Notes: generated by a model not told the origin, from the letters alone. Counted from the first letter of the stretch, positions 540-25,500 are shown. The stretch: 64,000 nt of DNA from Acidobacteriota bacterium (GCA_965205505.1 CBDBHB010000007.1:576001-640000), one strand, 5' to 3'. Numbers and translations are program-made.

Positions 540-569
540 CTGGTCGTCGTTCGCATAGCCTTCCTCACC

Positions 570-1961: not shown

Positions 1962-2044
1962 TCGTAGGCCATTCGATTCGTCCGCCGCTACGCTACGGTC
2001 GCACGCGGGTGCGGCGATGGAGATCCGTCTCGCGCAGTGATGCC

Positions 2045-2724: not shown

Positions 2725-2998
2725 ACTGATGCCATATTACCATAGTCCAGCACAACCAGACCGCCAGCATCCGTCAGAAAGGGGCCGAGCTGCGCCGCGG
2801 GGCGCAGTCCACAGCCTGCAATTAGCAGTTCTGCATACGGGTGATGCCGGCCGCCGGCCGGCGATTGCGTAGAGGATCCCTGGAGAAGACAGCGCACCTG
2901 TGATTGCATCCAGGCATCTTCACCTCACCGACGCGACTAGCTGAGTCGGCGGTGTCTATCTGGGACATTCCCGCTGACGCATTGCGGAGGAACTGAAC

Positions 2999-4573: not shown

Positions 4574-4848
4574 CAGGCCGTGGTGAAAGTGTGGTGGGTC
4601 TGGCGACAGGGTCTTGCGAGGCGCAGGCAAGGAGAGAGGAGGAGGCGATGGTTACCCCATCGTTGACGACGAACGACGTAGCATACGCGCGCAACCCCCT
4701 GTCGCCCGAATGGTTACGGCGACTTGGGGCCATCTGCGGCGTTGGCCTTCCTCGACGATCGCGGGAGCATCGCCAGCGTCAGGCCGCCTTGCATCTCGCC
4801 CCAACTCGTCGTAACCAGACCCACCACACTTTCACCACGGCCTGCTAG
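4570..4848. mobile_element. MITE, 279 bp, with 34-bp perfect terminal inverted repeats bounded by CTAG
   Basis: ctagcaggccgtggtgaaagtgtggtgggtctgg (4570-4603) is the exact reverse complement of 4815-4848; no transposase; partial copies at 50421, 56674 and 60155. Confidence 0.85.
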
Positions 4849-5046
4849 CGTCGTCCCATCAAGACCATCAGCCACCTTCAACCCCCATGCGCTGGAGGTG
4901 ACGCTCGCCGATGAACATGGTGGTGCCCAATCGGGGCTCGTTGGTTCCTCGCGGGGACAATCCTACGCATATTTCGGGACCAACATCGCCGGCACCGGAT
5001 CAGCGCCCGGTCTAGCGGTTGGCTCTCCCCGGCCCGCCTGAGCGTT

Positions 5047-6963: not shown

Positions 6964-7187
6964 CGGTGTTGTTCCTTTCCTGGAAACCTGACGGGACTAC
7001 GATCGTCGTCTGGAAGAATCACGTGTCGGGTTAGTTTCGCGCCAGCCGCCCGGCGTCTCTGGCGAGCTGGGTCCCATGGCGCTACCACAGAGGAGTGGAT
7101 GGGCGCCTGAAGTCTATCGCCGCGACGGCCGGGGATCCACGCTGGCGGAACGACCAGCTAGGTCAGCTCCTGCGCCGGAGCTACCCC

Positions 7188-7315
7188 GACTTCTTGCTAA
7201 ACTGCGGACACAGTTTGGGCACAATCGGCACGGCAAAATCCACCGTGCGGCTCGTAAGTACCCATGAATAAAGGGAGCGCCCGTAGCTCAGCTGGATAGA
7301 GCAGCGGACTTCTAA
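7188..7315 (+). repeat. att-like junction: arm-like sequence plus 5' half of tRNA-Arg(TCT) (7277-7315)
   Basis: 39 bp identical to 15586-15624 and 38/39 identical to tRNA 23173-23211, ending at anticodon loop CTTCTAA; upstream blocks shared with 15509-15585. Confidence 0.85.
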
Positions 7316-7499
7316 GTCACTTCACTCGACCGGGCGCGTCTTGTTTCTATTTGTATCCAGTTGCATCCATTCGACTTGTGCCCGATGGAAAGTGACTGCG
7401 AGTTGTTTCTATTTGTATCTGGTTGGACATAGATTGGCAGGAATTTGGCAAGGTCGGAGCTGATGGCGTGGCGCGTCGACCGAGACTTGGCCCAGGACG

Positions 7500-7556
7500 C
7501 TACGGCTCCGTCGGCACGAGCCGCTTCAGCTCGTCGAACCAGTTGAGGATCACAAC
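7500..7556 (-). pseudogene. C-terminal remnant of an acidobacterial kinase/TolB-repeat protein
   Basis: Minus strand reads VVILNWFDELKRLVPTEP*, a characteristic terminal motif; the rest of the gene is absent. Confidence 0.5.
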
Positions 7557-7581
7557 CTTATCGGGGGTCTTCTGGTCGGTC

Positions 7582-7655
7582 CGCCGGCTTCAACAACCTG
7601 TTGACTGCACCGATTCAACGAGTTACGAAGTGGCCCCAACAGCTGGGTCAGGTCA
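7582..7655 (+). mobile_element. Solo right end of an IS3 related to 16946-18205
   Basis: cgccggcttcaacaacc...gggtcaggtca resembles 18132-18205, including the terminal ggtcaggtca. Confidence 0.6.
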
Positions 7656-7941
7656 ATACGGTTGGCCGATCGGAAGGAGGCTCATCATGACGCTGGGCAC
7701 TTCAGTACGCGGCCCGCTGCTGCCGCTTCTGGTGGTCTCGTTGGCCTTCTTCAGCTCTAACAGCACGACCACCCTACAGGGGAAACGACCAGCTGATCGT
7801 CTGGTGGATTCTGGGAGAGGACAGATAGGACACGTGGCCTCGGGCGCCGGAGCCTTCATTGGTCGTGGAGCATGACCCCATGCTCACGCGAGCGCGGTGG
7901 CGGGAGGCTGGTCGCGGTCGCCGGCCCGCCCAAGACGTCCA

Positions 7942-9222
7942 TCACTTGGCGACGCCGTACTCGATCGGATTGTACCCAGGGTCCGGGAACAGACCCCTGT
8001 AGTCGGTGTTTCCGAGCCGCTTTCCGATGATCTCGGTGATGATGTCCCGATAGTCGATCGTTACCTGCAGATCCTGCTCCTCGAACATATTCTTGCGCTC
8101 GAGGCCGGGCCATTCGGTGAGCACACGACCTCCCTTGATCGCGCTCCCCATCGCCATCATGAGGCCGCCGGCACCGTGGTCGGTTCCGGCGCTGCCGTTC
8201 TCGTGCGTATTGCGTCTGAACTCCGACATCACCATCGTGGTGACTGGTTGCCCCTTGCCCGCCGCCAGGTCTTCGTGGAACGCGGCAAGCCCCTCGGACA
8301 GCTGAGTCATCAAGTCGGCCATCCATCCCTCGAAGGGACCCTGCTTTTCATGCGTGTCCCAGCCGTCCAGATCGATCGAAATCGCCTCGACTCCGATCTC
8401 GGCCTTGATCAAGGCCGCCGTCGACTTCAGCGACTCGCCGAAAAAGTCGCTCGGATAGGCGGCGCCAGAGGCCGGCTGGTAGCTCTCGAAGTCGATCGTA
8501 TCGAGCAGCTCGATGGTCCGCACGGTGTTCTTGGCCTGGGTCCGTAGCGCGTCGCCGGCCGCCTCGTACATCGGCAGGTAGTAGTCATTGAGCGGATCAT
8601 CCCAGCCGAAGCCGTAACTGGCGAGGTCCCAGATGGGAAGGACCTTCGAGCCTCCCAGCAGCGTAACCGGGACGCCGCCGCCGATACCGACCGCTCGCAA
8701 AACGGCGTTGGCGGTCGTCGGCCCCGTTTGGGCCAGATGACGGCCCAGCCAGCCGCTGAACTCGCTGGCCCGCGGATCCTCCCGGCCGACCTCCATGAAT
8801 TTCATCGCGTCGAAGTGGGAGCGGTTGCCGTGCTTCATGCCGCAGGCGTGAACGATCAGCAGGTCCTTGCTCTCGAACACGTCGGTCAGCGGCCGCATCG
8901 CCGGCGGGAAACCGAACTGGTTATCGAGAGCCGTTGCCTTGTTCTTCTTGCCGCTGTCGGGCGGCGGAACGCTAAGCGTTGGCCGTAGCTTGTAGTAGTT
9001 GTCCTCCAGGAACGGAACGCAGATCGTCAGCGCGTCGACGCCGCCGCGAAGGAAGATCGACACCAGGACATCGCGCCCGCCTACGTAGCTGTCCGCCAGC
9101 GCGACGCGCGGTAGCCACTGAGGGATCACCGCGCTCGCCGCCACCCCGGTGGCGAGGCCGACGAACCGGCGGCGAGAAAGCTCGGAGTACTCGCTACATC
9201 CCTTGCACTCGTGTTGACTCAT
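7942..9222 (-). CDS. DUF1501 family protein with Tat signal
   Basis: LSRRRFVG, FLRGGVDAL, NRSHFDAM, GWDTH, SEFRR..ENGSAGTDHG motifs; partner of DUF1800. Confidence 0.88.
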   Translation of the reverse strand: MSQHECKGCSEYSELSRRRFVGLATGVAASAVIPQWLPRVALADSYVGGRDVLVSIFLRGGVDALTICVPFLEDNYYKLRPTLSVPPPDSGKKNKATALDNQFGFPPAMRPLTDVFESKDLLIVHACGMKHGNRSHFDAMKFMEVGREDPRASEFSGWLGRHLAQTGPTTANAVLRAVGIGGGVPVTLLGGSKVLPIWDLASYGFGWDDPLNDYYLPMYEAAGDALRTQAKNTVRTIELLDTIDFESYQPASGAAYPSDFFGESLKSTAALIKAEIGVEAISIDLDGWDTHEKQGPFEGWMADLMTQLSEGLAAFHEDLAAGKGQPVTTMVMSEFRRNTHENGSAGTDHGAGGLMMAMGSAIKGGRVLTEWPGLERKNMFEEQDLQVTIDYRDIITEIIGKRLGNTDYRGLFPDPGYNPIEYGVAK

Positions 9223-9304
9223 CGGCTCCTCCACGGGCGTCTCGCGCCGCCGAACGCACGACGGCCCGCCGTTGACTCCACGACGCGCTCCTCTATAGCC
9301 GAGC

Positions 9305-10801
9305 TCAGTACCACTGGAACTCCGGTGAGCTGATAACCAGGTTCATAACCTGCCTGACCCGCCAGTCGCCCGTGTGCGGGTTTGCCGACATGTAGTCCAG
9401 GATCACGTTCCTGGTCTCGGGTGACATGCCGCCGGCCAGGAACTGCTGGTCGATCTGGTCGACCAGCTCCGCGTCCGACGCGGGCGGATTCGCGAGAAAC
9501 GGAAGGTCTGGGTCGATGCCGTTGTTCCAGTCGCCGATCACTCCCTGCGCGAAGTTCCACCGATTCAGGAGCGACCCCGACCAGTATTCGAAAGTGTCCG
9601 GATAGCCGTCGGGTGTGTCCCAGTCAAAGAGCCCGTGGCGAAGCTCCCCCGGCACCCACATCAGCCATTTACCCGGATCGACGTCCGCCTCCATGGCCCG
9701 GACCGTCGAGACGATCAGGTGGTACGGACGCTTGAGCTTCGGCGTCGCCTTTCGCATCAGATTCTTCGACAGAACGACCCGGAGCATGGCGCGGATGTCG
9801 CCGCCGGTCTGAAGGTAGGCCCGCTTCACCTTTCTGACCATCGAACGGCCGGGCTCGTAACCCCAGAAGTAACGCAACAGCTTGCGGGCGATGAACTCCG
9901 CCGTGTTGGGGTGCTCGGCGAGCCTCGTAAGAACTGCCTCGCCGTCGCTGATCCCTCCGCCGGCCGGGATTCTTCTGCCGAGCACCACCTTGGCGTCGTA
10001 GTCGTGGGCGCCCGCCTCGAACACGAAGTCCCCCCGGCGGTTCTTCGGGTTTCCGTACAAGTCGAAGAGCGTCCATCCCGTCAGGCACCCGGCGACCTCC
10101 ACGATGTCGTTTTGCGTGTAGCCGTTGTCGACACCGAGGGTGTGGAGCTCGAGAATCTCGCGGGCGTAGTTCTCCTGCGGGAACTCCTTGGTGTTGGAGT
10201 AGTTGTCGAGGTAGAAGAGCATCGCTGGGCTGTAGGCGCTGGCGCGCAGCAGCTCCGGGAACGTGCCCATGGCATGGCGCCGGATGACGTCGCGGTCGTC
10301 GCTCGGCTTCATCAGCAGGGTGTCGTCGCCGATGTCGATATTGAAATGGTCCGACCAGAAGATGACCATGCGCTCGAAGAGCTACCGGGGGCTGGAGATC
10401 GAACGCAGCATCGTGGCGATCACGAGATGGTCGTGCGCTTTGCTGTAAGGGTCCCTCCTGTATCGCTGCAGCAGCTCCGCCGTCGTCAACGATGTGGCGG
10501 GATAGTCTCTGGCCACCCGGCGCTCGAGCACGCTGTCGTCGAGCGACTCGAAGTCGAGCTGCTCCTCCAGGTACGCGTCGTAGCCAATGGCGTTGACCCG
10601 AGCCAGCTCGCCGGGCGTTGCGCCCATCGTGATGCGCTGCACGAGGCGCTGGTTCACTGGAATGGCTGCTGCGGCAGCGATCCGACGACGCTGCATGCCC
10701 ACCTCCGCCATACCGAGCCCTAGCCGGCGCGCTCGGTAGATAACCGCACCACCGATGCGACCGCCGCCATGGCGTCGGTTCGTGTGCGTCAGACCGGGCA
10801 C
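9305..10801 (-). pseudogene. DUF1800 family protein interrupted by an in-frame TAG (10382-10384)
   Basis: Two ORFs in the same frame read SPR*LFERMVIFWSDHFNI; ENYAREILELHTLG and SSPEFQWY motifs; start uncertain. Confidence 0.82.
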
Positions 10802-10865
10802 TCCAACGTCTGCATAAAGCTAGCACAAGGAGAAACGCATTCCCTAGCCTGAACTTCCGCCCCCG

Positions 10866-11220
10866 TCATCGTCGCTTCGCCCCCTCCAGGACCCACCGAT
10901 CGAACAGGGCGAGAACACCGTCGCTCAGTGGCGGGGCGCCCTGGGGCATACGGGCTCCGGTGATCCCTTCCCCTTTGAGCTTGCGGATCAGATAGCTGTT
11001 GGCCGGGTCCCTTGGCTCGATGCGGTTGAGCTGCACCATCTGAGTGCTGCGGACTCGAACGATGTTCGCGTAGGCCGAGCCGGCGCTGAGGTTGAGAAGG
11101 GCCTCAGGCGCCACACTGCTATGGCATCCGGCCCGATCGCAGGAGGTACTGAAGACGGGTTTGATGTGGTTCTCGAAGCTGATCACCTCGGGGTTCACCA
11201 GCCTCAACGCGCGCCCCCCG
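10866..11220 (-). pseudogene. C-terminal domain of a secreted protein with CxxxxCH motif, 5' end lost
   Basis: SFENHIKPVF..SCDRAGCHS..PRDPANSYLIRKL..RMPQGAPPL..WVLEGA cytochrome-c-like domain; abuts truncated racemase. Confidence 0.55.
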
Positions 11221-11282
11221 GTCGCGATGCTGGCCGTCGGGGGCGACGATGCGCAGGGATACCGACCGTGGCTCACCCTCGT

Positions 11283-11913
11283 CCTGGATGCTGTGCGCGA
11301 ATGGCGGCAGCAGACTGCACTCCAGTAGCAACGCGCGTATCTCCGGATGATGCGCAACGAGCCCACTCGCGACAGACACGACCTCTGACTCCATGCGAGC
11401 GACATTCAGGTCGTGCTGATCGCGGAAGACAACCTCTTCGAAGTGAGGACATCCCTCTAGCCCCGCTACAACGACGCTATCGGGATCAACTCCAGCACTT
11501 TGAAGGTGCCTCGACGTGAGATGTCGCGCGTCAGCCGTCATGATGCCGACCCGGTGACCGGACTTCAGCATACGGGCGATAAGAGGCACGAGTAGGAGGC
11601 TCGAAGCGAAGACTGGAACATCAACCGCCTCGGCCAGCTGGTCCTGGAACACAGCCGTGAATCCACAGCTGGTGGTAATCGCGCGGACTCCAGCTTCCTC
11701 GAGGCTCCGCGCTCCATCGATCCAGGGACCGATGACGTCGTTTGTCTCGCGGACGACACGCTCGCCGGTCGCACCAGGCACAACGTAGTGCAAGACCGGG
11801 AATGGGAAGGTTGTTGCGTTTCCGAGCGCTCCCGGCAAACGAGGAAAATGGCCCTCGATGACGAGAATACCAATCGTATGACCGTACAGGCTCGTCGTAC
11901 CGTGTACCTTCAT
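11283..11913 (-). pseudogene. Asp/Glu/hydantoin racemase family protein, C-terminus truncated
   Basis: IGILVIE..FPRLPGALGNATTFPFPV, ITTSCGF and LLECSLLPPF motifs; similarity stops after AHSIQD. Confidence 0.75.
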
Positions 11914-12506
11914 CTGGTACCTCGTCCGTCGCGAGAATCTTGGCCTGCGGCGAGCCACGCGACGTTGTTGTTCCTCGACGCCGAGGCATTCTCCTACGCC
12001 ATTTGTCTCCCGGCCAACGCCATGTTAGCCCGCAACAGGCCAACATCTCCGGTCGCTCCTGACTTTCACTCAGTGGAACCAGGCGCGGAGAGCCGGTTCC
12101 GCGCCTGTGAGCTGACGACGGTAAGTCGGCGAGTCTCTAGGAATGCTCGTGGCAATAACAGCGTAAGGATCGCGGCGACTCGAATCAGCGAAGGTATTGG
12201 TGCGCCTTGCATACGCCGCAGCCTAACTTCAGGCGCCCGGATCGGACAACTCCGCGACTTGAGTCGGCAAGCGATCAACACGCTCCTCCGCGCAAGTTGG
12301 CTCCATCAAGCGCCGGGAAACCGACATGGAATGCACCCATGCCGACTACCTCGCCTGATACCTACCGCCGACCGCTGATTCGAGATAAGGATCCCTGGAA
12401 AATACAATGCGCGTGTGATTGGATCACACCGTCTCCGCCTCGCTGAGGGAAGTATCGACTCGGAGGTGGCTATCTCGTCACATGGGCAGTCCGCAGAGGC
12501 GAGCCT

Positions 12507-13247
12507 ATGCACCCCGAACGGCTGGGCGACTTCAAGGTCCTGACATTCGACTGTTACGGGACGCTCATTGACTGGGAGACGGGAATCCTCAATGAGCTGA
12601 AGCCGTGGGCTGCTCGACACGGTCTGACTCTGGACGACGACACGCTGTTGGAGGCCTTCGCCGAGGAGGAGGCGGCGTGCGAGAGGACCACGCCAGAGAA
12701 GCTCTATCCTCAGATCCTCGCGGCGGTGCTCGGGCGGCTCGCGAAACGGTGGTCCGTAGCGCTCGACGAGGGGGAGGCCCCGGAGTTCGGAGGGTCCGTG
12801 GGCGCGTGGCCGGCGTTCGCCGACAGTCCGAAGGCTCTCGTGTACCTCCAGAAGCACTACAGCCTGGTCATCCTCTCCAACGTCGACCGCCGTTCCTTTG
12901 CGCTGAGCGAGTCGCGGCTGGGGATCAATTTCAAGCGAGTGATCACTGCAGAGCACGTCGGTTCCTACAAACCTGACGTGCGGAACTTCGAGTACATGCT
13001 GAAGGATCTGGAGCGGACGCTGGGGGCTGGACCTGAGGTGATCCTGCATACGGCACAGAGCCTCTTCCACGACATCGTCCCCGCGAAGGCCATGGGATTG
13101 ACGACGATGTGGATCAATCGCCGTAAGGCATCCGACAGATGGGGTGCCACACCGCCGCCGCCGGTCGAAGGTACGGGCGCAGCGCCGGATCTCGAGGTAG
13201 CGGGCATGGCGGAGTTCGTCTCGCTTCACCAGGCAGTCGTCGGGTGA
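12507..13247 (+). CDS. HAD-superfamily hydrolase (haloacid dehalogenase type II-like)
   Basis: LTFDCYGTLIDWE, LSNVD, SYKPD and HTAQSLFHDIVPA motifs. Confidence 0.9.
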   Translation: MHPERLGDFKVLTFDCYGTLIDWETGILNELKPWAARHGLTLDDDTLLEAFAEEEAACERTTPEKLYPQILAAVLGRLAKRWSVALDEGEAPEFGGSVGAWPAFADSPKALVYLQKHYSLVILSNVDRRSFALSESRLGINFKRVITAEHVGSYKPDVRNFEYMLKDLERTLGAGPEVILHTAQSLFHDIVPAKAMGLTTMWINRRKASDRWGATPPPPVEGTGAAPDLEVAGMAEFVSLHQAVVG

Positions 13248-13353
13248 TCGTGGGGCCCGCGCCGGCCTTCGGACCGGCCCCTGGGCACAGGGACCATTGG
13301 CGGCCCGGTGAAAGCTCCCGGTTTCTGCCACACCCGTGCACTAGGAAACACAG

Positions 13354-15330
13354 ATGAACGACAGCGATCGCGCGTTGGGAATGCACCGACCCATCAAGCG
13401 TCGAGACTTCGTCGCCGGGGTCAGCGCGGTGATCGGTGGAACCATGGCCATCCCGGGAATCACCCGGCCCGCGGCTCCGATGTCGCTTCAAGTCAGATCA
13501 GTCAACGCCCAGAGCTACCCGCCTCTCCGTACAGGGATGCGCGGTGCCCACCCGGGGTCCTTCGAGGCGGCGCACAGGACACGCGACGGGGCCAACTGGG
13601 AAGGATCGGAACCCGTTGACGAAAGTTACGACGCCATCGTCGTCGGAGGTGGTCTCAGCGGTCTGGCTGCGGCGTACTTCTATCGTCAGATGGCAGGCCC
13701 GGAAGCTCGGATCCTGATCCTCGACAATCACGATGACTTCGGTGGCCACGCCAGGCGAAACGAGTTCGAGACGGATGCCGGGACGCTGATCTCGAACGGG
13801 GGGTCGTCCTACATGGTTCGGCCCGTGACCTACTCGGCGCCTGTCATGGCCATGCTCCGCGATATTGGTGTCGAGCTCGACGAGCCAACGAACGTAGCGG
13901 ATTCAAGCGCGTTCCGCAGCCGGGGGATGGTGCGAGGGACGTTCTTCGACCGCGAGACCTTTGGAGAGGACCGGCTGGTCACAGGAGGCAGACTTTCGCA
14001 GCCGACGCGGGAGTTCCTCGACCGGACGCCCTTGTCGGAGCACGTCCGGACGGACATTCGTCGACTTCATGCCGGGGCGGACTACCTCGCCGGCATGTCG
14101 GTGGTGGAGAAGGAAGCCTATCTGCAGCGGATCAGCTATCGAGATTATCTGCTTGACGTCGCGAAGGTCCATCCCGACGTGCTTCCCCTGGTCGGGAGCG
14201 TCTGGGCGCTTTCGCAGGACACGGCGAGCGCCTGGTTCGCCTTCTATCGCGGTGGCATGGGCTTCGAGGGCCTCGACCTGACGCGCCCGCCCTTCTCTCC
14301 GGAGCGGTCCGAGGAGGGGCACGAATCAGTGAGCTTCCCCGCCGGCAACTCCGACATCGCGCGGCTCATCGTTCGCTCTCTGATTCCGGCCGCCCTTCCG
14401 GCGGGGCGAATGGCGGACGTCATCCTGGATCGCGTTGACTATACGAAGCTCGACGACCCGCGCTCACCGGTGCGGATCCGGCTGAACAGCACCGCTGTTC
14501 AGGTCAAGCATCTGGGCGAGACCCCCGTCGGCCGCCTGCGCACGGACGATCGGGAGACCGAGGTTACCTACGTTCGGGAGGACAGGCTGTATCGGGTTGG
14601 CTCGAAGGGGGCGATTCTCGCCTGCGACAACTCGGTGATCCCGTACATCTGTCCGGAGTTACCCGAGGATCAGCGGGAAGCACTCCTCCTCGCGGACCGG
14701 GCGGTAAACATGATGACAACGGTCTTGGTTCGGACCTGGACGTCGTTCGAACGGCTAGGCATCAGCGGAGTGGACAGCCCGGGGATGTTTTACAACACCT
14801 TCAATCTCCGTACGCCGAGACACTTCGGCACATACCGGCCGGAACTCGACCCTGTGGACCCCGCCCTGGTCGGATTGCAGAGCCCGTCCGGCGTTCTGCA
14901 CCACCGAACCATGGTTCGGGAGCTGTTCGACGGCAATCCACCCGCACCCGGCACTCCGCTCCGGGAGCAACTTGCGGCGCTTCGGACCCGCGTGTTGAGA
15001 ACCCCGTTCGAGGACTTCGAGCGTCGGATCCGGGCGCAGCTTGCGCGAGTCCTTTCGCCCGGTGGCTTTGATCCCGCACGCGACATCGAGAGCATCACGA
15101 TCAACCGCTGGCCGCACGGGTTCGCGATGGGAACCAACGCTCTGTTCGATCCCGCCGAGTGGACGGGCGAGAACCACCCCACGGTCGCGGGTCACAAGCC
15201 CTTCGGGAGGATCACCATCGCGAACTCTGATGCAGCTGGCCTAAGCCTCGCGCAGGCGGCAATGGGCGAGGGTTATCGTGCTGCGACCGAATTGGTACCT
15301 CGGAACTACGGGTACTTCAGCGAAATCTGA
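13354..15330 (+). CDS. Spermidine dehydrogenase-like FAD oxidoreductase with Tat signal (paralog of 5047-6963)
   Basis: IKRRDFVAG, YPPLRTGMRGAHPGSFEAAH, GGGLSGL, LDNHDDFGGHARRNEF, FPAGNSDIARL and NRWPHG motifs. Confidence 0.85.
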   Translation: MNDSDRALGMHRPIKRRDFVAGVSAVIGGTMAIPGITRPAAPMSLQVRSVNAQSYPPLRTGMRGAHPGSFEAAHRTRDGANWEGSEPVDESYDAIVVGGGLSGLAAAYFYRQMAGPEARILILDNHDDFGGHARRNEFETDAGTLISNGGSSYMVRPVTYSAPVMAMLRDIGVELDEPTNVADSSAFRSRGMVRGTFFDRETFGEDRLVTGGRLSQPTREFLDRTPLSEHVRTDIRRLHAGADYLAGMSVVEKEAYLQRISYRDYLLDVAKVHPDVLPLVGSVWALSQDTASAWFAFYRGGMGFEGLDLTRPPFSPERSEEGHESVSFPAGNSDIARLIVRSLIPAALPAGRMADVILDRVDYTKLDDPRSPVRIRLNSTAVQVKHLGETPVGRLRTDDRETEVTYVREDRLYRVGSKGAILACDNSVIPYICPELPEDQREALLLADRAVNMMTTVLVRTWTSFERLGISGVDSPGMFYNTFNLRTPRHFGTYRPELDPVDPALVGLQSPSGVLHHRTMVRELFDGNPPAPGTPLREQLAALRTRVLRTPFEDFERRIRAQLARVLSPGGFDPARDIESITINRWPHGFAMGTNALFDPAEWTGENHPTVAGHKPFGRITIANSDAAGLSLAQAAMGEGYRAATELVPRNYGYFSEI

Positions 15331-15508
15331 CTGATTGGCTCCGCATGTACCCTTGTCCGGTCATCGATCACGCCACCGCTTTAGGGTTCCTCCGATATCG
15401 GACAGACCGCGGATTCGTGCTTACGTGGGCTCGTTGCGACTGGCCGAAGCGAATCGCGAGTGATCACCTCGTGCGGATGGAGCCCGCTACCTACCCCAGA
15501 CGTGGGCG

Positions 15509-15624
15509 GACTTCTTGCTAAACTCCGGGCACAATCCGGGCACAGTCCGAAACCGCCCGTTCGTAAGTGCCCATGAATAAAGGGAGCGCCCGTAGCTCAG
15601 CTGGATAGAGCAGCGGACTTCTAA
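15509..15624 (+). repeat. att-like junction: arm-like sequence plus 5' half of tRNA-Arg(TCT) (15586-15624)
   Basis: gacttcttgctaaact, gggcaca direct repeats and cgtaagtNcccatgaataaagggag shared with 7188-7276, followed by the 39-bp tRNA 5' half. Confidence 0.85.
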
Positions 15625-15879
15625 GTTTCCGCCCCGTTTTTGGACAGAGCTGTATCGGGCTGGATTCCTTTGGAATCAACGGCGGTTACGCAGATTCCTT
15701 TCCAGCTAGATATATCTAGGGATATACAGAATCCGGCGCTGTTTGGAAGAGAATCTGCAAGGATTGTGCAAGCAGGCCGAGACCACGATCGGAGTTCGGG
15801 TTCGCGAATCTCGGGATCCGGATCCAGAGCGCTCGGCCGGTCGGGCCAGTCGGTCCGTGATATAGAACTCGAGCAGAAG

Positions 15880-16536
15880 CTAGGTTGCCGCAGGGCTGCT
15901 GAGCACGTAGTAGATAACCAGAGCGACGATCCCAACAAAGCCGGCCCAAAGCGATTTTCGCAAGGCCGCGTACTTCCTCTGGCACACGCCGGCGAGCTCG
16001 TGGACGTGACGGAGTGTTTCACCCACGAGCTCCGCTTCGGCGAGCCCTACTACATGGTCTGAGTACTCGGCTGCTGAACCATACTCTGAGACCGCATCGA
16101 AAAAGAGGGCCCCTCGCTTTGATCCTTGCTGTCGCGGAACCACAACCCAAAGTGATAGCAAGACGGAAACGCTGATGCAGACGCTAGCTACGACACTCCA
16201 ACCGTCGGCAAAAGCCCATGTGCGCGGGTCCCGCATGGACCCGCTGATGGGAGAGAGTGTGTGCAGATACGACAGGAGCGCGATTCCAATAGCGAAAATA
16301 AAGCCTGCCTTGCGATCAGCAAGGCGGATGAAGTCACGAACGTACGCGTGAGCATGCCAAGCGAACCGCGCGGTGTCGTCCCGAATCACCCCAGCAGTGC
16401 CGGCGAACGCCCCCACATCGCTTTCCCGAGGTACAGCTGGTTCGGTCAGTGGGAGCGCTTTGTCATGAAGCTCGGTGGGTGTCTCGATCGCCGTCGGTTC
16501 GTTCTTTCTTCTCTGATGGTCGTTTCGATCAGACAT
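15880..16536 (-). CDS. Pycsar-type transmembrane effector (PycTM/DUF5706-like)
   Basis: IRLADRKAGFIF, three hydrophobic helices, VVPR, LFFDAV and KYAALRKS pattern; starts 2 bp after a nucleotide cyclase. Confidence 0.8.
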   Translation of the reverse strand: MSDRNDHQRRKNEPTAIETPTELHDKALPLTEPAVPRESDVGAFAGTAGVIRDDTARFAWHAHAYVRDFIRLADRKAGFIFAIGIALLSYLHTLSPISGSMRDPRTWAFADGWSVVASVCISVSVLLSLWVVVPRQQGSKRGALFFDAVSEYGSAAEYSDHVVGLAEAELVGETLRHVHELAGVCQRKYAALRKSLWAGFVGIVALVIYYVLSSPAAT

Positions 16537-16538
16537 CT

Positions 16539-16945
16539 CTAGATGAGCCTAGCCCAGCGCCCGTCATAGCGGTACAGGGGATAGCTGAGCCCAGAAAGCC
16601 GGTAAGTCCAGCCGGTCTCCAGGGGTAAACGAGTCGCGAATGCCCGGCTCCAGTCTTGTGGAAGCTCGAGCGTTGCTTTCTCACCGAGCACGATGTCACC
16701 CGGCTTAGCGTGCTTGAGCATCTTGGAAGCGAAGTTGGCGGCGTCCCCCACAGCGACGACCGCGTTGAAGCGCCTTGCGGCACCCAAGCGGGCGAGAGTT
16801 ACGAAGCCGTGATCAATGGAAATCCTGAACCGTATTTCTGGGACAGCGGCTCTCCGAAGTACGGGGTTAACCAGATGTTCTGTCGCGGCCATCATCGTCA
16901 ACGCCGCGGCCAGGGAGCGATGCGACCCACCTGCGGGCGGGCTGC
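16539..16945 (-). pseudogene. Class III nucleotide cyclase (Pycsar PycC-like), C-terminal part only, cut by IS3
   Basis: FRISIDHG..VGDAANFASKMLKHAKPGDIVLGE cyclase motifs; frame runs into the IS end at 16946. Confidence 0.8.
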
Positions 16946-17011
16946 TGACCTGACCCCCCAAAACGGATCCAGAGGTAATCTCACGATCTGGGTCGAAAAG
17001 GGGAGGTCAGA

Positions 17012-17290
17012 ATGCCGACGAAGAGGCACAGCGCCGAGCAGATCGTACGCAAGCTCCGGGAGGCTGAAGTGGAGCTGGCGCAAGGCGGGACGGTCAAGGA
17101 TGCCTGCCGCAAGCTAGCGATCACCGAGCACACCTACTATCGGTGGCGGCGGGAGTACGGGGGGCTGAAGGTCAACCAGGCCAGAAGGCTCAAGCAGCTG
17201 GAGAAAGAAAACGCCCGGCTCAAGAAACTGGTGGCGGAGAAAGAGCTCGACCTGTCGATCCTGAAGGAAGTCGCGGAGGGAAACTTCTGA
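17012..17290 (+). CDS. IS3 transposase OrfA
   Basis: [26 protein letters not shown] and coiled coil, ends EGNF. Confidence 0.9.
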
Positions 17291-18171
17291 GCCCAGCTCG
17301 ACGGCGCGAGGCGGTGGCGCATGTACAGGGGCGGCTGGGCGTCTCCGAGAGGCGGGCGTGCCGGGTACTGAAACAACCACGCACGACACACAGGTACATG
17401 CCAAGAGAACCGGGCGATGAGCAGATGTTGACGGAGCGGATCGTGGATCTAGCCCGACAATACGGGCGCTACGGGTATCGGCGAGTGACGGCGTTGTTGC
17501 GTATGGAGGGCTGGTGGGTGAACCACAAACGAGTGCAGCGTATCTGGAGGCGTGAGGGGCTGAAAGTACCGACAAAGCAGCCCAAACGAGCCCGGCTGTG
17601 GCTCAGCGATGGCTCGTGCATCCGGCTGCGACCACAGCGCAAAGATCACGTCTGGGCGTATGACTTCGTCCATCACCGGACGCACGAGGGTCGGGCTATG
17701 AGGCTGCTGACGATCGTCGATGAGTACACACGAGAAAGCCTGGCGATCGACGTGGCACGGAAGCTCAACTGTGAGGACGTGCTCGAGCGGCTCGGGTGGT
17801 TGTTCGTGCACCGGGGCATACCTGAGCACATCCGGTCCGATAACGGACCGGAGTTCACCGCCGAGGCGGTTCGCGACTGGCTCGGTAGGCTCGGTGTGGG
17901 CACGCTGTTCATCGAGCCGGGCTCGCCGTGGGAGAACGGCTACGTGGAGAGCTTCAACGGCAAGCTCCGAGACGAGCTGCTCAACGGCGAGATCTTCTAC
18001 ACGCTCAAGGAGGCAAAGGTTCTGATCGAGAGATGGAGGCAGCAGTACAACCGCATGCGACCGCACAGCTCGTTGGGCTACCGACCACCGGCCCCGGAGG
18101 CGCTGTTGTTGAAGCCGGCTACGCTCCGCTTCGCCGGCCTCAACAACCCCTTGTCAGCACCGAGTTACTGA
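17287..18171 (+). CDS. IS3 transposase OrfB (DDE), reached by -1 frameshift
   Basis: [31 protein letters not shown] and [12 protein letters not shown] motifs. Confidence 0.9.
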
Positions 18172-18264
18172 GATAAGACGTGGTACTAACCGTGGGGTCA
18201 GGTCACTCCGGCACCGGCGCATCCGTGGTCGGCGCGCACCCGGTGACGACTACGAGAAGGGCGA

Positions 18265-18792
18265 TCAGAACGTGGCGCAAACGCGGGCCTCCTCCCACAA
18301 GACGGCTCGGTGGTTGAAACGCACCTTGATCGCCTCGATCACCGCTTCCACCGCTGCGACGAACGAGTCGCGGTCCGAGAGTGGATGCAGGATCACGATC
18401 ATCCGTCCGGCGCTCGTACCGGCACGGCCGTCGCGACGCTGCCACCAACCCGTCGTTTCGATCACGCTGCCCCCGTCCGGGAAGTGCGGAATGAGAACTT
18501 CGTTGACCAGCGAGTCCCAGCGCTCGTCGGGTGCGCCGTCGGTGTTGCGGCCGCTCATGTAGAGAGCCGCCCGGAGGTAGGGCTGCAGTGGTGCCGGACA
18601 CACCGACGCCAGCGTCTCCGCAGGCGTGCCGCGCGGCGCATTCGCGGTAGACGCGCAGCCGGCGATTGCCACGGCGGTCGATAGCGAGCCGACCAGCAAC
18701 ACCGGCGTCCATACCGATTTCGGTGCGGCACGACCGTGCGGCCCGCTACGGCGCGCCTCGGTGCTTCGCGCCCGGAGCTGCCATCGGTGCAT
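18265..18792 (-). CDS. DUF3574-like lipoprotein
   Basis: Lipobox IAGC; EVLIPHFPDGGSVIETTGWW..VILHP..FNHRAVL pattern; TGATG overlap with upstream gene. Confidence 0.65.
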   Translation of the reverse strand: MHRWQLRARSTEARRSGPHGRAAPKSVWTPVLLVGSLSTAVAIAGCASTANAPRGTPAETLASVCPAPLQPYLRAALYMSGRNTDGAPDERWDSLVNEVLIPHFPDGGSVIETTGWWQRRDGRAGTSAGRMIVILHPLSDRDSFVAAVEAVIEAIKVRFNHRAVLWEEARVCATF

Positions 18793-18972
18793 CAGGCCTG
18801 CCACCGAGTCCGACCGCCGACCACCGTGCGCACCACGCCGATCTCCTTGATGCCATCGGGGTCGACATCGTGCGGGTCCGCCTTGAGCAGCACGAAATCG
18901 GCCAGCTTGCCGGCAGTGATCGAGCCCTTGATGTCTTCCTCGAACGAGGCGTAGGCACCGTGCATGGTGCAG
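18792..18972 (-). pseudogene. Amidohydrolase-3 family C-terminal fragment
   Basis: TMHGAYASFEEDIKGSITAGKLADFVLL..VRTVVGG; ends abruptly at an AT-rich segment. Confidence 0.7.
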
Positions 18973-19559
18973 AATAGTTTACAGGAACTTCTAGTAGACT
19001 ATCACCTCACTATTCCCACCATTAAATCGGGGAATAAAGCGAACTTCTCCGGACCTCTGGGGAGCCCTGAACACACCGAGCGCCAGGGCCGCAATCGCAC
19101 CCGGCGAGAGCCGACAAGATACAGCACATTGGGATTAAGATAGAGAACGCTAAGCTTAAGAAAGAGAACCCTAAGCTTGAGCTAGAGGACAAGCCTAAGT
19201 GGACGCCCTGTGAAATCCTCTGGATTCATAAGATTCACTCGTTCTGGTTCAACGCCACAGCAAGTTTGTTCGGCTCCGCAGCGCTCCCGATACTTGGTCA
19301 CGTAGCATGTAGACTGGATAGCGTCAATAAGATGACCATCGGAACAGCAGCACTACTGGCTTTCTTGGCTCTTCTTGCCTTCGGTGGAATAAGGGCATCC
19401 TGCCTGAAATGACCTACCGAGAGGGCTTGTTCAGTTTCTTCCGGAAGAGTAGACCCGAGTCCTCTTGACTCTAGTCGGTCTATTCAGCGACTCTGTCGGC
19501 TAGGCGGAGCTTGAAAGACGAAGAATAAGAACGACGGAAGAGAACAGAGGAAGTGTTAA

Positions 19560-20327
19560 GTGGAATCCAGTCCGACCGATAGCAAGACATGGCACTACGA
19601 CCGGCACGGGGTTCCGCTTCTGACTGCTAAGCAGGTCGAAGAGATCGCCCAGGATTTTCTGCAAACTTACTGCCCGACGCATCTGTCCAATCCAGGCACG
19701 CTGCCAGTCTCTACAATTCTCCAAAAAGTTCAAGCCCGGGATGGGCTGCGTGTATCGTTTCCTGACTTGGGACAAACTGATGGCAAAAGAATCCGTGGTC
19801 GGATCACGTTCTCGCAGCAACGAATTGACCTTGATTCTGGACTGCTGTCGGACGACCGATCTAAGTGGTTCGCCTTCACAGCGATGCACGAGTTAGGGCA
19901 TTGGGTTCTTCACCGGTACAGACCCATTCGTTGGGCAAAGGCTGGCGTTCTCACCGACGGTCGCCCGAGGAGACTAAGAAACCGACTAGAGATCGGTGCG
20001 CCCGATTGGATAGAGTGGCAAGCAAACAAGTTTGCAGCGTTCGCGCTCATGCCTCGTCGTCCGTTTCTCCGGGCGCTCGAACAAGTTCAGAGCGAGCAAG
20101 GATTGTCGCGCCGCGGCGAAGTGTGGGTAAACAACAGCAATGTCGCTGACTACAAAAAGACGTACGCAGGCCTGGCAAGAAAATTCGGCGTATCTATGAC
20201 TGCTGTCCGGTATCAGCTTAACGATTTACAGCTTCATAGGGGAAATGAGGAGCGCTACGAGGCCAACACATGGAAAAGGGTCACCGCTGCGCATGAGACA
20301 ATGGTGACCCTAGGAGTGGACTGCTGA
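19560..20327 (+). CDS. ImmA/IrrE family metallo-endopeptidase
   Basis: FTAMHELGHWVLH (HExxH), EWQANKFAAFALMP and C-terminal LARKFGVS HTH. Confidence 0.88.
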   Translation: MESSPTDSKTWHYDRHGVPLLTAKQVEEIAQDFLQTYCPTHLSNPGTLPVSTILQKVQARDGLRVSFPDLGQTDGKRIRGRITFSQQRIDLDSGLLSDDRSKWFAFTAMHELGHWVLHRYRPIRWAKAGVLTDGRPRRLRNRLEIGAPDWIEWQANKFAAFALMPRRPFLRALEQVQSEQGLSRRGEVWVNNSNVADYKKTYAGLARKFGVSMTAVRYQLNDLQLHRGNEERYEANTWKRVTAAHETMVTLGVDC

Positions 20328-20805
20328 GATAAGGACACACCCTGGTGTACCCTACGTGCCGGATGAGCGCGCTCACACTGCCGCCAGCGGTATCAAGCTC
20401 CGCGTTCAACTTGTCGTCCAACTCCTCCCCGCGGCTCGCCTTCGGCTCGAGCCGGCCAGCCTGAACAGATCGCCAGACCTGCCCAGGGAAATTCGTGAGA
20501 GAAAAGGACAGTGCCTGAACGTCGTCTTGTGCTTTGTGGATCAGTGGGAGGACTTCCCGGAAGATACTGATTCGGAGCTGGTCTCGAAGCATGCTCCGCT
20601 GTGCCGTGAATGCACTCTCGGTGCTTCGTCGGAATTCAAGCGCGCCTAACCGGACCAGCAGGAGCCAGCCAATCACGGTCAGCACGTGCAGGCGACGGCG
20701 CTTCACGTGTGGATCATCAGGCTGGCGAGAAAGACACCAAGCACCTGCGAGCTTAACGGCTATACACGGATCAGCGCTCAGCTCGTGATCTCGATGCGAG
20801 AGGAA

Positions 20806-21888
20806 CTAGTGTAGCGTCTCTAAAATGGCTTTACAGCGATTAACTTTGTCGATGATCTGCTGGGCGGAAGCACTCCAAACATAGGGCTTGGGATCGTCGT
20901 TGTAGTTGGCAATGAAGTTCTCGATGTTTTGGATGAGTGCTTGGACGGAAGGAAACGCAGCTCGTCGGACGCTTTTTGTTGTCAGCTCAGCGAACCAGCG
21001 CTCCACCAGGTTCAGCCACGAGGAGCTTGTTGGAATGAAGTGCAGGTAAAAGCGACGATGCCGAGACAACCACTTCTTCACATTGGGGTGCGTGTGGGTG
21101 CCGTAGTTGTCAACGATCAGATGCAGATCTAGTTCCTGGGGGAACTCGCGGTCGAGCTTGCGTAGGAACTTCAAGAACTCTTGATGCCGATGACGCGGCA
21201 GACACTGACCGATGACGGTTCCGTCCAGCATGTTCAGGGCGGCGAAAAGGCTCGTCGTACCGTGGCGCTTGTAGTCGTGGGTCATGGTTCCGGCACGGCC
21301 CTTCTTGAGCGGCAACGACGGCTGCGTGCGGTCCAAAGCCTGAATCTGAGACTTCTCATCCACGCACAGCACTACAGCCCGATCTGGCGGATTCATGTAC
21401 AGGCCGACCACGTCGGTGAGCTTGTCCACGAAGTGGGGATCCTTGGAGAGCTTGAACGTCTTGACCAAGTGAGGCTTGAGTCCGTGAGCGTCCCAGATCC
21501 GCTGGACCGTGGCGGCACTGACCCCTTGCGCCTTGGCCATCGTTCGGCACGACCAATGAGTGGCGTTGGGTGGCTTGGTGTGCAACGTTGCTTCGACGAT
21601 CTGTTTGATCTTGTCCCGGGAGATGGACCGGGGTCGTCCACGTCCCGGCCTGGTCTGCCCCAGCGCCACGGGACCTGCTTTCTCGAACCGCCTTCTCCAC
21701 ATGATCACAGTCGGCCGGCTGATGCCGAGCTGATCAGCAATCCCGCTATTGGACTCGCCATCTGCCGCCAGCAGGATGATCCCGGCACGAGTCGCTACTG
21801 ACTGTGGTGTGCTGGGGGCTCGGAGCCAGGCTTCCAGAACGTCTCGATCCTTGTCCGCGAGCGCTATCGGTTCTGCTTTTGTGGCCAT
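20806..21888 (-). CDS. IS630 transposase
   Basis: VDEKSQIQALDRTQP, THDYKRHGT, VDNYGTH and SSWLNLVERWF DDE motifs. Confidence 0.93.
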   Translation of the reverse strand: MATKAEPIALADKDRDVLEAWLRAPSTPQSVATRAGIILLAADGESNSGIADQLGISRPTVIMWRRRFEKAGPVALGQTRPGRGRPRSISRDKIKQIVEATLHTKPPNATHWSCRTMAKAQGVSAATVQRIWDAHGLKPHLVKTFKLSKDPHFVDKLTDVVGLYMNPPDRAVVLCVDEKSQIQALDRTQPSLPLKKGRAGTMTHDYKRHGTTSLFAALNMLDGTVIGQCLPRHRHQEFLKFLRKLDREFPQELDLHLIVDNYGTHTHPNVKKWLSRHRRFYLHFIPTSSSWLNLVERWFAELTTKSVRRAAFPSVQALIQNIENFIANYNDDPKPYVWSASAQQIIDKVNRCKAILETLH

Positions 21889-21948
21889 GCGAAGCACAAT
21901 ACAATGGTCTTCATCTAATGTAAAGCTATTTACGATACACTATACTAG
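20806..21948 (-). mobile_element. IS630-family insertion sequence flanked by CTAG
   Basis: Imperfect 30-bp IRs ctagtgtagcgtctctaaaatggctttaca / tgtaaagctatttacgatacactatactag; TA/CTAG target typical of IS630. Confidence 0.9.
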
Positions 21949-22050
21949 GCTTGGTAGAGGAGGGAGAGAGTGAGGGAATGCTAACTGCGCTCCTGGCTTT
22001 GTCCTCAGACGAAGAGGGCGACACGGCGCGAAACGACGAGGCCCCGAACG

Positions 22051-23142
22051 GTGGGTGAGATACGCAAACGCGGCAACGTCTGGTGGATCCGGTACTACCG
22101 AAACGGCCGACGCCACGAGGAAAGCTCCGGCAGCAAGCGGAAAGGCGATGCGGAGAGGCTGCTGAGAATCCGAGAAGGCGACATCGCCAAGGGCTTGCCT
22201 GTTACCGCGCGGGTCGGGCAGCTTCGCTTCGATGAGGCCGCGGCCGACGTGGTCACCGACTACCGGGTCAACGGCAAGCGAACGCTGCGGGACGTCGAGC
22301 ACCGCGTCCGGCTACACCTCGAACCGTTCTTCGGCGGTCGCCGGATGGCAACGATCACGACGGCCGACGTTCGCGCGTACACTTCGCACCGCCAAGGCGA
22401 GGGCGCGGCCAACGCCACAGTCAATCGTGAGCTCGCGATCGTGAAGCGCGCGTTCCGGCTGGCGGTCCAGGCGCGCAAGCTGCTCCACATGCCGCACATT
22501 CCCATGCTGCGCGAGGCCACCGCCCGAACTGGTTTCTTCGAGCGAGACGAGTTTGAAGACGTTCGCGATGCCCTGCCCGAGCCACTTCGCGGCATAGTGA
22601 CGTTCGCCTACCTCACCGGATGGCGGGTGCCGTCGGAGGTCCTGCCGTTGCGCTGGGCACAGGTCGATCGTAACGCGTGCACCGTCCGCCTCGAACCCGG
22701 CACGACGAAGAACTCCGAGGGCCGCACCCTACCCTACGATTCACTGCCCGAGCTCGGCGCCGTCGTTGCGCGGCAGTGGCAGGAGCATGAGCGCCTAGCG
22801 GCTGCGGACGTCCTGTGCCCATTCGTGTTTCATCGTCGCGGGAAGCCGATCAAGGGATTTCGCAAGGCGTGGGCGACGGCTTGCGAAGCTGCCGGTTGTC
22901 CGGGCAGGCTGCCCCATGACTTTCGACGGACGGCGGTCAGAAACCTGGTTCGCGCCAGCGTGCCAGAGAAGGCGGCAATGGCAATCACCGGCCATAAGAC
23001 TCGCAGCATCTTCGATCGATACAACATCATCAACGAGGCTGATCTCAGGAGCGCACTCGGGAAGCTCCCCGCTCCGACGGGGACAGAAACGGGACAATCA
23101 GACCGTACAGGCCGTTTGGTGAACTTCTCTGATTCCTCCTAA
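22051..23142 (+). CDS. Tyrosine recombinase / phage-type integrase
   Basis: N-terminal arm-binding WWIRYY, TGWR, TKN, HDFRRT, TGHKT..FDRY catalytic set; ends 30 bp before the tRNA. Confidence 0.93.
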   Translation: MGEIRKRGNVWWIRYYRNGRRHEESSGSKRKGDAERLLRIREGDIAKGLPVTARVGQLRFDEAAADVVTDYRVNGKRTLRDVEHRVRLHLEPFFGGRRMATITTADVRAYTSHRQGEGAANATVNRELAIVKRAFRLAVQARKLLHMPHIPMLREATARTGFFERDEFEDVRDALPEPLRGIVTFAYLTGWRVPSEVLPLRWAQVDRNACTVRLEPGTTKNSEGRTLPYDSLPELGAVVARQWQEHERLAAADVLCPFVFHRRGKPIKGFRKAWATACEAAGCPGRLPHDFRRTAVRNLVRASVPEKAAMAITGHKTRSIFDRYNIINEADLRSALGKLPAPTGTETGQSDRTGRLVNFSDSS

Positions 23143-23172
23143 ACTTCTGATATATAGATATTTTTATCCTAC

Positions 23173-23246
23173 GCGCCCGTAGCTCAGATGGATAGAGCAG
23201 CGGACTTCTAATCCGCAGGTCGGAGGTTCGAATCCTCCCGGGCGCG
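23173..23246 (+). tRNA. tRNA-Arg (anticodon TCT)
   Basis: Acceptor GCGCCCG/CGGGCGC, D-arm GCTC/GAGC, anticodon arm GCGGA-CTTCTAA-TCCGC, T-arm GGAGG-TTCGAAT-CCTCC; CCA not encoded. Confidence 0.96.
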
Positions 23247-23668
23247 CCTTTGTTATCAACAACTTACGCCGATTGGCCGAGTCGCCGTAGCGGTAGACCT
23301 TGCCTATTCCGAGCCATTTCGCACGTCGCCTCAGACTGGTTCGGAGTCATCGAAAGACAGCGCCACATAGCTAAGGTCAACGTGCAGCAGGTCGCCGGGA
23401 GAAGGACGGTGTCCGGGCAATCCGCAGGTCTCTGGATCGATGACGCGTCGGCCCGAAGGCGATCTGCGCCGTTCGCGCGCCCTAACGCGTGGGGAAGGTA
23501 CGTTACGCGCAAGGTGGCCCTCTAACGACGCTGCGAATCAGTTCCAGCGATCCGGATACGGCAATTGACGGGTTTGAGGCCACCAGTGGCCAACCGCCCG
23601 AAGTCTTGGCCGCCTCCCCGGGAGCCGACCCCGAGCGACCGGCGCCGTCACGACACACTTCGGACGCC

Positions 23669-25177: not shown

Positions 25178-25500
25178 GCCGCCCTCCATCCGTCGAGCCT
25201 GGGACTGGTGTTCCTTCCACTAGACAGCATGGGCATATCACAACCCCGGCGGGGGTTACAACGGAGAGGGAATGGGAAGATTGTAAAGATTTGTCGAGAA
25301 ACCTCTTGGGGCTATTTTCCCTACGGATAGCGGGTCTAGTTTGCCTAAGATAGGGCGAGCCTAACGAGCGCCCCTTGCTCCACCCCAGGCCTCCGTGAGT
25401 GCGGAGGCCGGTTTAGTCCTCGGTAACGGCAGCTACCACTCGAGCGGAACCGCCTCAGACGTCTACGCGGCGACTGACAGCACCCCTGGAACACCTGGTC

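Follow-up and report, generated by a model that had tools for sequence, protein, structure and literature searches.

Integrative units that probably stacked upstream of a single-copy tRNA-Arg(TCT) gene in an Acidobacteriota genome

At the sites of integrative and conjugative elements (ICEs), accretion arrays with cis-mobilizable elements (CIMEs) are known, and those at ICESt1/ICESt3 of Streptococcus thermophilus lie at the 3' end of a protein gene and hold one or two units. For tRNA genes, of the 3919 islands in Table 1 of the Islander study (Hudson, Lau and Williams, 2015; PMC4383910), 159 have a 5' fragment and 3760 a 3' fragment, and the study counts 125 tandems of two or more islands and 4 of three or more. 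A review (PMC8371274) describes attB sites in the tRNA 5' half as typical of archaeal pTN3-like integrases (Cossu et al., 2017) and "seldomly encountered in bacteria", and cites the classical model, in which strands are exchanged within the 7-nt loop and the anticodon stem provides the core sites. The tycheposons of Prochlorococcus (Hackl et al., bioRxiv 10.1101/2020.12.28.424599) are tyrosine-recombinase elements at a few tRNA genes, tRNA-Arg(TCT) among them, where newcomers push older elements inward and the islands contain degenerated elements and extra partial tRNAs. Here we describe a tandem array upstream of tRNA-Arg(TCT) in a soil-type Acidobacteriota genome, within a stretch of 64,000 nucleotides (GCA_965205505.1, CBDBHB010000007.1:576001-640000; hereafter the window, with positions counted from its first letter). 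Our analysis makes it likely that this gene is the attachment site of integrative elements of reversed polarity, which carry the tRNA 5' half and upstream DNA, and that units have stacked there, the older ones integrase-less and probably moved in trans.

The tRNA gene, its displaced 5' halves and the insertion point

The features that define the array are as follows.

23173-23248, plus strand: intact tRNA-Arg(TCT), the sole tRNA called within the window (ARAGORN)
23173-23211, plus strand: tRNA positions 1-39, with A at position 16 (A16), the part that unit 3 would have supplied
23212-23248, plus strand: tRNA positions 40-76, the presumed resident 3' part
7277-7315, plus strand: displaced tRNA-Arg(TCT) 5' half, positions 1-39, with C at position 16 (C16; sequence match)
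15586-15624, plus strand: displaced tRNA-Arg(TCT) 5' half, positions 1-39, C16 (sequence match)
1-7315, plus strand: right-hand part of an older integrase-less unit or units, starting outside the window at C7:572085, on the same contig (Pfam; collinearity with the relative G004)
7316-15624, plus strand: unit 2, 8.3 kb, integrase-less (Pfam, tblastn)
15625-23211, plus strand: unit 3, a 7.6-kb integrase-bearing island bounded by 5'-half repeats (Pfam, PADLOC)
22051-23142, plus strand: tyrosine integrase of unit 3, 363 aa (PF00589 and a SAM-like N-terminal domain)

An earlier note on this DNA had claimed two 39-bp copies of the tRNA 5' half, upstream of and co-oriented with the gene and ending at the anticodon loop, and both a pattern search and blastn-short (E = 3.4e-13 for each half against the tRNA) bore this out. 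The two copies do not differ from each other, and each matches tRNA positions 1-39 in 38/39 bases, the sole mismatch being position 16 (window 23188), which is C in the fragments and A in the gene. Both end with CTTCTAA, at the last base of the anticodon loop, after which they diverge, one continuing with GTCACTTC... and the other with GTTTCCGC..., while the intact gene reads on into TCCGCAGG. Across the whole genome (5.98 Mb and 55 tRNAs, tRNA-Arg(TCT) being present once) the 5'-half pattern occurred at exactly three places, all on the plus strand of one contig, and a reversed-pattern control gave none. A co-oriented 5' fragment upstream of an intact tDNA, broken at the anticodon loop, is what Islander takes as a fragment, and both halves are of this kind. 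The D-loop difference had been read as a trace of 5'-half replacement; the intact tRNAs of two genomes of the same genus, G003 and G004, carry C16, so A16 entered the gene with unit 3.

We propose that the attP of these elements would consist of the tRNA 5' half through the anticodon loop together with upstream DNA. Recombination in or next to the 7-nt loop would insert the element so that the two resident halves come to lie on either side of it; strand exchange would occur within the loop, with the anticodon stem as the putative core sites. The former 5' half would be displaced upstream and go dead, and the gene would then run on the half that the element supplied and on whatever promoter it brought. 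Unit 3, its integrase intact, would be the latest arrival, and unit 2 and the unit or units ending at 7315 would be earlier arrivals through the same crossover.

Comparison with G004 showed an insertion at this point. Window 2770-7315 (sulfatase, FAD oxidoreductase, the conserved upstream block that we call X, and the 5' half) is collinear, at 94-97%, with the DNA directly before the intact tRNA-Arg of G004, and the match stops exactly at the loop, where G004 continues into the tRNA 3' part. Because DNA of unit 1 thus joins the intact tRNA in G004, 7316-23211 is an insertion at the loop relative to that genome. Unit 2 is absent from the G004 site, and in G004 a further 5' half delimits the unit 1 homolog on the left. 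The earlier note had suggested looking for relatives with an empty site: G004 is without 7316-23211, and the site of a second, tRNA-Lys island (described below) is empty in three of five relatives. It had also suggested a search upstream of the window for the original chromosomal 5' half, and a profile search found a fourth, decayed copy of block X with the half some 3.9 kb before the window begins (C7:571938-572084). This left-most copy is the most decayed, a gradient that fits the oldest copy lying furthest from the gene. The claim of at least three stacked units stood, the array proved longer, extending left of the window, and the integrase was confined to unit 3. The wider proposal, of elements that carry the 5' half and cross over in the anticodon loop with the newest nearest the gene, is supported by G004, by the homolog loci and by the paralog island described below.

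We regard an assembly artefact, with repeats collapsed or mis-joined, as hardly credible. Short-read contigs from four runs in four studies do end at 7290/7520, ~15599 and ~23202, and none bridges the repeats, but unitig assemblies do break at repeats of 39-150 nt. The genome is in 9 contigs, with the array inside one of 717 kb, and junctions of these kinds are also present in assemblies made independently: in G003, block X, the half and GTCACTTC... occur at 83-86% identity to window 7188-7546, and junctions of integrase and half are also seen in G004 and G005. Contig joints at 7303-23219 and 15611-23217 were rejected as junction evidence, as other letters lie between the two sides and they look like tRNAs of other organisms.

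The tRNA-Arg(TCT) site seems, on its sequence, to be used from both sides. A mirror set, comprising the 3' part of the tRNA (positions 33-76) and about 120 nt like its downstream flank, occurs at C7:451765-451808 (minus strand) and at G004:C15:1288216-1288259. The G004 copy is oriented like the gene and stands 26 kb downstream from it; that of the window genome is inverted, at a distance of 147 kb, and has nearby a gene 93% identical to the Rieske dioxygenase gene at window 23669-25189. The genome is rich in tRNA end fragments generally, with 3' parts of Met, Leu(CAA/CAG), SeC (selenocysteine), Thr, Val and Phe tRNAs, and with tRNA-Lys(TTT) 5' parts (1-38 and 1-36) 2 kb apart at C9:1745436 and C9:1747438, on the other strand from their gene and 360 kb from it. 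At C9:617574-617648 ARAGORN called a tRNA-like gene whose anticodon has four bases (agca) and to which it assigned no amino acid.

The unit 3 integrase and the polarity of its family

The integrase of unit 3 matched PF00589 with E 3e-14 (53.6 bits against a cut-off of 27.1), and its stop codon lies 30 nt 5' of the tRNA. Residues R192, K220, H289, R292, H315 and Y324 are invariant in 7 homologs (alignment A1), and we take them to be the R..K..HxxR..H..Y catalytic set. The gggaca repeats described for its tail are present as GGGACA-N5-GGGACA at 23080-23096, the only paired GGGACA in the window (0.53 expected by chance over its whole length), and a tail repeat of this type was seen in all 11 homolog loci read. 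A match to the integration host factor (IHF) consensus at 23140-23152 on the minus strand, likewise described before, is one of three in the window against 0.82 expected. Another (TATCAACAACTTA, 23254-23266) lies 6 nt past the tRNA, in a stretch that is also kept after the G004 tRNA.

The homologs were collected from 26 genomes of the order, giving 11 loci, two of them in the window's own genome. At eight an intact co-oriented tRNA begins 8-90 nt past the stop (Arg-TCT at three, Lys-CTT at three, SeC at two), and at two more, in G005 and G004, the integrase is followed by a tRNA-Arg 5' half ending in CTTCTAA; after the last (41% identity) nothing of the kind follows the stop. The expectation that such integrases end just 5' of a tRNA or of a 5' half was thus borne out at 10 of the 11 loci.

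The clearest case is the paralog in the window genome (C7:19594-20640, 78% identical), which is followed after 90 nt by tRNA-Lys(CTT); a copy of positions 1-43 of this tRNA stands 6.5 kb upstream, 39 nt after tRNA-Arg(CCG). Three of the five genomes examined (G003, G002 and G006) have His-Arg(CCG)-Lys(CTT)-Leu(TAG) as a contiguous cluster with a spacer of 40-41 nt, and there the unoccupied tRNA-Lys site is clean on both sides; the same spacer measures 66 nt in G005 and 373 nt in G004. Given the displaced 1-43 part here and the contiguous cluster in the relatives, the island inserted into the tRNA-Lys gene at its anticodon region and gave it a new 5' half. Its gene content, by annotation a layout of a satellite-like or replicative integrative element, is:

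C7:13900-21000 (locus L151): tRNA-Lys island, 6.5 kb, with the integrase, two divergent helix-turn-helix (HTH; Xre/Cro-like) genes, a 779-aa Toprim-domain protein and a 407-aa protein without a Pfam match

We then considered the wider family at 80 loci, mostly from Acidobacteriota metagenome-assembled genomes and otherwise from Nitrospira, Rokubacteria, Binatia and Gemmatimonadota, with a tRNA sought from -90 to +200 nt of the integrase stop and fragments sought in flanks of up to 10 kb. The tRNA was co-oriented, with the integrase reading into its 5' end, at 16/80 loci; it was opposite, with the integrase reading into its 3' end as in the usual polarity, at 34/80; and 30/80 had none. A displaced 5' part (1-39 to 1-46) lay upstream at 5 of the 16 co-oriented loci, and 5 of the 34 opposite ones had at their far end a displaced 3' part that starts at position 30-40 and is complete to the tRNA terminus. 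Within these flanks neither class showed the other's fragment pattern at that end, and all of the fragments break around positions 30-46.

A tree was built from 73 of 87 sequences, 14 being left out because the match was shorter than 280 residues or held an internal stop. It requires at least nine polarity changes, five of which are forced by well-supported branches, and polarity is therefore labile in this family of anticodon-loop integrases. The window integrase sits in a supported clade (SH-aLRT 99) of 9 rows, representing 7 distinct sequences, that all have reversed polarity, and the nearest neighbours of this clade are tRNA-Leu integrases of normal polarity, one of them 70% identical (L058).

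Integrase-less units, their conserved ends and their possible origins

The ends and cargo of the units within the window are listed below.

2999-4573, plus strand: sulfatase, older unit or units (Pfam)
5047-6963, minus strand: flavin adenine dinucleotide (FAD) oxidoreductase, older unit or units (Pfam)
7164-7276, plus strand: block X, with a GGGCACA-type pair at 7206-7223 and CGTAAGT.CCCATGAATAAAGGG (nhmmer profile match C7:583164-583315; repeat family D3/D1)
7316-7546: left end of unit 2, with 28-nt repeats at 7336-7363 and 7398-7425
7942-9234, minus strand: DUF1501, unit 2 (Pfam)
9305-10369, minus strand: DUF1800, unit 2 (Pfam)
11119-11958, minus strand: racemase, unit 2 (Pfam)
12507-13247, plus strand: HAD hydrolase, unit 2 (Pfam)
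13354-15330, plus strand: FAD oxidoreductase, unit 2 (Pfam)
15488-15585, plus strand: second copy of block X, with a GGGCACA pair at 15527-15544 (repeat family; profile search)
15880-16536, minus strand: PycTM effector, unit 3 (Pfam, PADLOC)
16539-16961, minus strand: PycC fragment, unit 3 (Pfam, PADLOC)
17143-18171, plus strand: IS3-family transposase, unit 3 (Pfam)
18265-18804, minus strand: DUF3574, unit 3 (Pfam)
19560-20327, plus strand: M78/CapP-like peptidase, unit 3 (Pfam, PADLOC)
20806-21897, minus strand: IS630-type transposase, unit 3 (Pfam)

The shared block with gggcaca-type repeats that had been described before each half was confirmed by repeat comparison and pattern search. The 25 nt directly 5' of each half are identical in 24 positions and a further block of 58 nt is 74% identical; paired GGGCACA occurs in the window only at 7206-7223 and 15527-15544, against 0.70 expected by chance over the whole window. 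Pairs of GGG(C)ACA with an 11-nt period stand 50-110 nt before the tRNA start in arms of both the integrase type and the X type, and at some unit left ends, and are candidate arm-type sites. Block X was also considered as the tail of a lost integrase and rejected: both copies keep an open frame that reads ...DFLLN.GH..GT..., but a tblastn search with the integrase gave no match there and the tails of the 11 homologs are unlike it.

G003, whose genome is in two contigs, has seven 5' halves and the intact gene within 27 kb. Its units span 2.5-6.4 kb with 1-4 genes each, and their cargo, mostly unrelated between units, includes pyrroloquinoline quinone (PQQ) dehydrogenases, amidohydrolases, an ion channel, a Ser/Thr kinase and Calx-beta proteins; no recombinase, and no match to PF00589 or to the integrase family, was detected in them. 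The ends of such units are shared regardless. Identity is 83-89% among three left ends that start with GTCACTTC (at window 7316 and in two units of G003), that of unit 2 being 83-86% identical to the two from G003, which have other cargo, and eight that start with ACCAAACGG and carry TTGG repeats at a 10-11-nt period are 78-95% alike. At seven right ends of the X type the 115-nt flank averages 71% identity (56-88%) whereas the 39-nt halves are 100% identical, a disparity to be expected if every unit, on arrival, needed to bring a functional half for a tRNA gene that is present once. In the older units the conserved ends comprise ~150-230 nt on the left and, on the right, 110-150 nt plus the 39-nt half; joined in a circle, they would have the size and layout of an attP. 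Many left ends (L048/L049 of G003, L054 of G001) have, just past the 5' half, 4-12 copies of the 10-11-nt unit ending in TTGG, followed by a pair of GGGCACAATCGTGGGCACAG; these sequences may bind a protein or bend the DNA. Among 401 sampled genomes of the phylum, arrays with at least three copies of the half on one strand were seen only in this genus (G000, the window genome, 3; G003, 8; G004, 3), pairs occurred in eight other genomes, and small units with the same break were seen in G021, G335 and G352.

Unequal crossing-over or segmental duplication of the tRNA promoter region and 5' half, without site-specific recombination and with the neighbouring genes acquired later, could also yield such repeats. 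Block X resembles the gene's own upstream region in G004, G011 and G012, the Calx-beta genes of two adjacent G003 units are paralogs (55% identity over 417 residues) whose 130-nt flanks do not differ, and the genome is rich in paralog families. Every copy read, however, ends uniformly at CTTCTAA in nine genomes (G000, G001, G003, G004, G005, G006, G021, G335 and G352), and the integrase family has the same break with proven empty sites. The left-end families are conserved independently of cargo, and the cargo of neighbouring units is mostly unrelated; a recent unit duplication in the window was rejected, its two FAD oxidoreductases being only 34% identical and on opposite strands. Taken together these points make an origin by duplication very unlikely.

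The integrase-less units might instead be ordinary islands that have decayed, each having later lost its own integrase by deletion, with no mobilisation in trans and the arrays as mere graveyards. Decay does happen, since G004 has a truncated integrase (residues 184-363) directly before a 5' half, 37 kb further up; G005 has two integrase-bearing units in tandem; and unit 3 already holds two insertion sequence (IS) transposase genes and a truncated PycC. Against this, seven family queries (E <= 0.01) detected no integrase remnant in units 1-2 of the window, in the seven units of G003 or in the two of G001. Where a member has an integrase gene, this gene ends 8-90 nt short of the tRNA, whereas integrase-less units have another conserved block there, unlike the integrase tail, and both unit ends are conserved despite differing cargo. 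We hold general decay to be a possible but rather unlikely account. Most likely, the integrase-less blocks were inserted, and would be removable, by a trans-acting integrase of the unit 3 family.

Several observations weigh against insertion of units into the loop and their movement in trans. Pfam and tblastn (with one query and with the seven family queries) found no integrase in units 1 and 2. G003, which has the longest array, has no PF00589 match within ~250 kb of it and no integrase-family member genome-wide at E <= 1e-30. Downstream of the tRNA, the window genome and G004 are alike for ~35 nt only, so that the empty site of G004 is one-sided and the locus rearranged, and some unit 2 cargo is found downstream of the tRNA in G004. 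Block X lies directly before the intact tRNA in G004, G011 and G012 as well, and may be the native upstream region of the gene instead of an element arm; G011 and G012 share a stretch of ~139 nt (part of X and the tRNA) and no flanks within 1.5 kb. Block X may be a native region copied by the cassettes or an element arm that has become fixed. A simple sigma-70/terminator scan gave no promoter-like site before the tRNA or the halves (four in 6900-23400 against 2.9 expected), and because of this, that the element supplies a promoter is something we infer. Logan contigs from the four public runs stop at the repeats and gave no direct evidence of excision, circles or recent movement, and units could also be lost or doubled when the ~150-nt repeats undergo homologous recombination.

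PycTM and PycC form a Pycsar-type defence pair in which PycC keeps its C-terminal part only (profile positions 108-189 of 226); since PycC is partial and the IS3-family transposase gene (17143-18171) adjoins it, the system looks interrupted. A contig of the public run X5 joins 16640 to 22061, or replaces the DNA between them, and continues into 9.7 kb unlike the window, so the cargo of unit 3 differs between strains. In unit 2 the DUF1800 open reading frame (ORF) matches its profile from position 89 only and is overlapped in another frame by a 385-aa ORF (9669-10826, minus strand); this region may contain a frameshift or a mis-set start.

Comparison with described systems

Islands with 5' fragments, tandem arrays and integrase-less att-flanked elements are all in print already, and what we describe is a rare but catalogued way of inserting. 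To this the locus adds an intact integrase of matching polarity capping the array, a clade-wide pattern with clean empty sites, and polarity switches in the wider family. Our literature search met no account of an integrase family whose polarity switches, nor of arrays of 5'-half cassettes that lack an integrase, but it is a thin basis for calling them new to print. The class that replaces the 5' half, though catalogued, has barely been studied in bacteria. Because such elements also replace the promoter, an essential single-copy tRNA would come under the control of mobile DNA. One clade of consistently reversed polarity, with clean empty sites and with close relatives of normal polarity, makes it directly testable what sets the polarity of an integrase at a tRNA site. 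The conserved ends of the integrase-less units also suggest a cassette-like route by which soil bacteria gather accessory genes (dehydrogenases, hydrolases, kinases, defence genes), one that island finders requiring an integrase in each unit would miss.

Among the described systems the 5'-fragment islands of Islander are alike in their co-oriented upstream fragment, their anticodon-loop break, their tyrosine integrase (here that of unit 3) and their tandem stacking. Islander demands an integrase in each interval, which 15625-23211 has and which 7316-15624, the unit ending at 7315 and all seven G003 units lack; with units 1-2 integrase-less, unit 3 is the only full member of that class in the window. 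The arrays are also longer, with four units here and seven in G003, and we saw in the available text no account of which integrase families supply 5' halves or of polarity switches. The pTN3-type elements share an attB in the tRNA 5' half and a rebuilt tRNA that is expressed from the element side. Their attP, however, lies inside the integrase gene, which is split on integration, while here the integrase is intact and ends 30 nt before the tRNA, in a bacterial host.

The tRNA-Lys island, with its integrase, HTH pair and Toprim protein, has a module set comparable to that of the tycheposons as their preprint text gives it. The tycheposons belong to another phylum, and in that text we saw neither which tRNA half they supply nor any arrays whose units share conserved ends and lack an integrase.

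The array resembles CIMEs in that integrase-less, att-flanked segments form a tandem with an element whose integrase could act on them: a recombinase-free segment lies between two att-derived repeats and adjoins unit 3. It differs from CIMEs in its site, a tRNA anticodon loop, in the supply of a 5' half and in comprising up to seven units, whose mobilisation is predicted.

As in integrons, integrase-less units lie beside one recombination site, the newest nearest to it, each with its own recombination sequence. We put forward only tentatively, as a reading that could well be wrong, that tRNA-Arg(TCT) in this genus is an integron-like site of gene capture, where small integrase-less cassettes (cargo and an attP of ~300 nt, with a promoter-bearing block and the 5' half) would be inserted, stacked and shuffled by a trans-acting integrase of the 22051-23142 family; a perfect half would be required because the gene is single-copy, and the family has switched the half that it supplies at least five to nine times. 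The integrase itself is a generic PF00589/SAM-like protein. Unlike integron cassettes, the units hold 1-5 genes in either orientation, and their site is a tRNA gene that each unit must restore.

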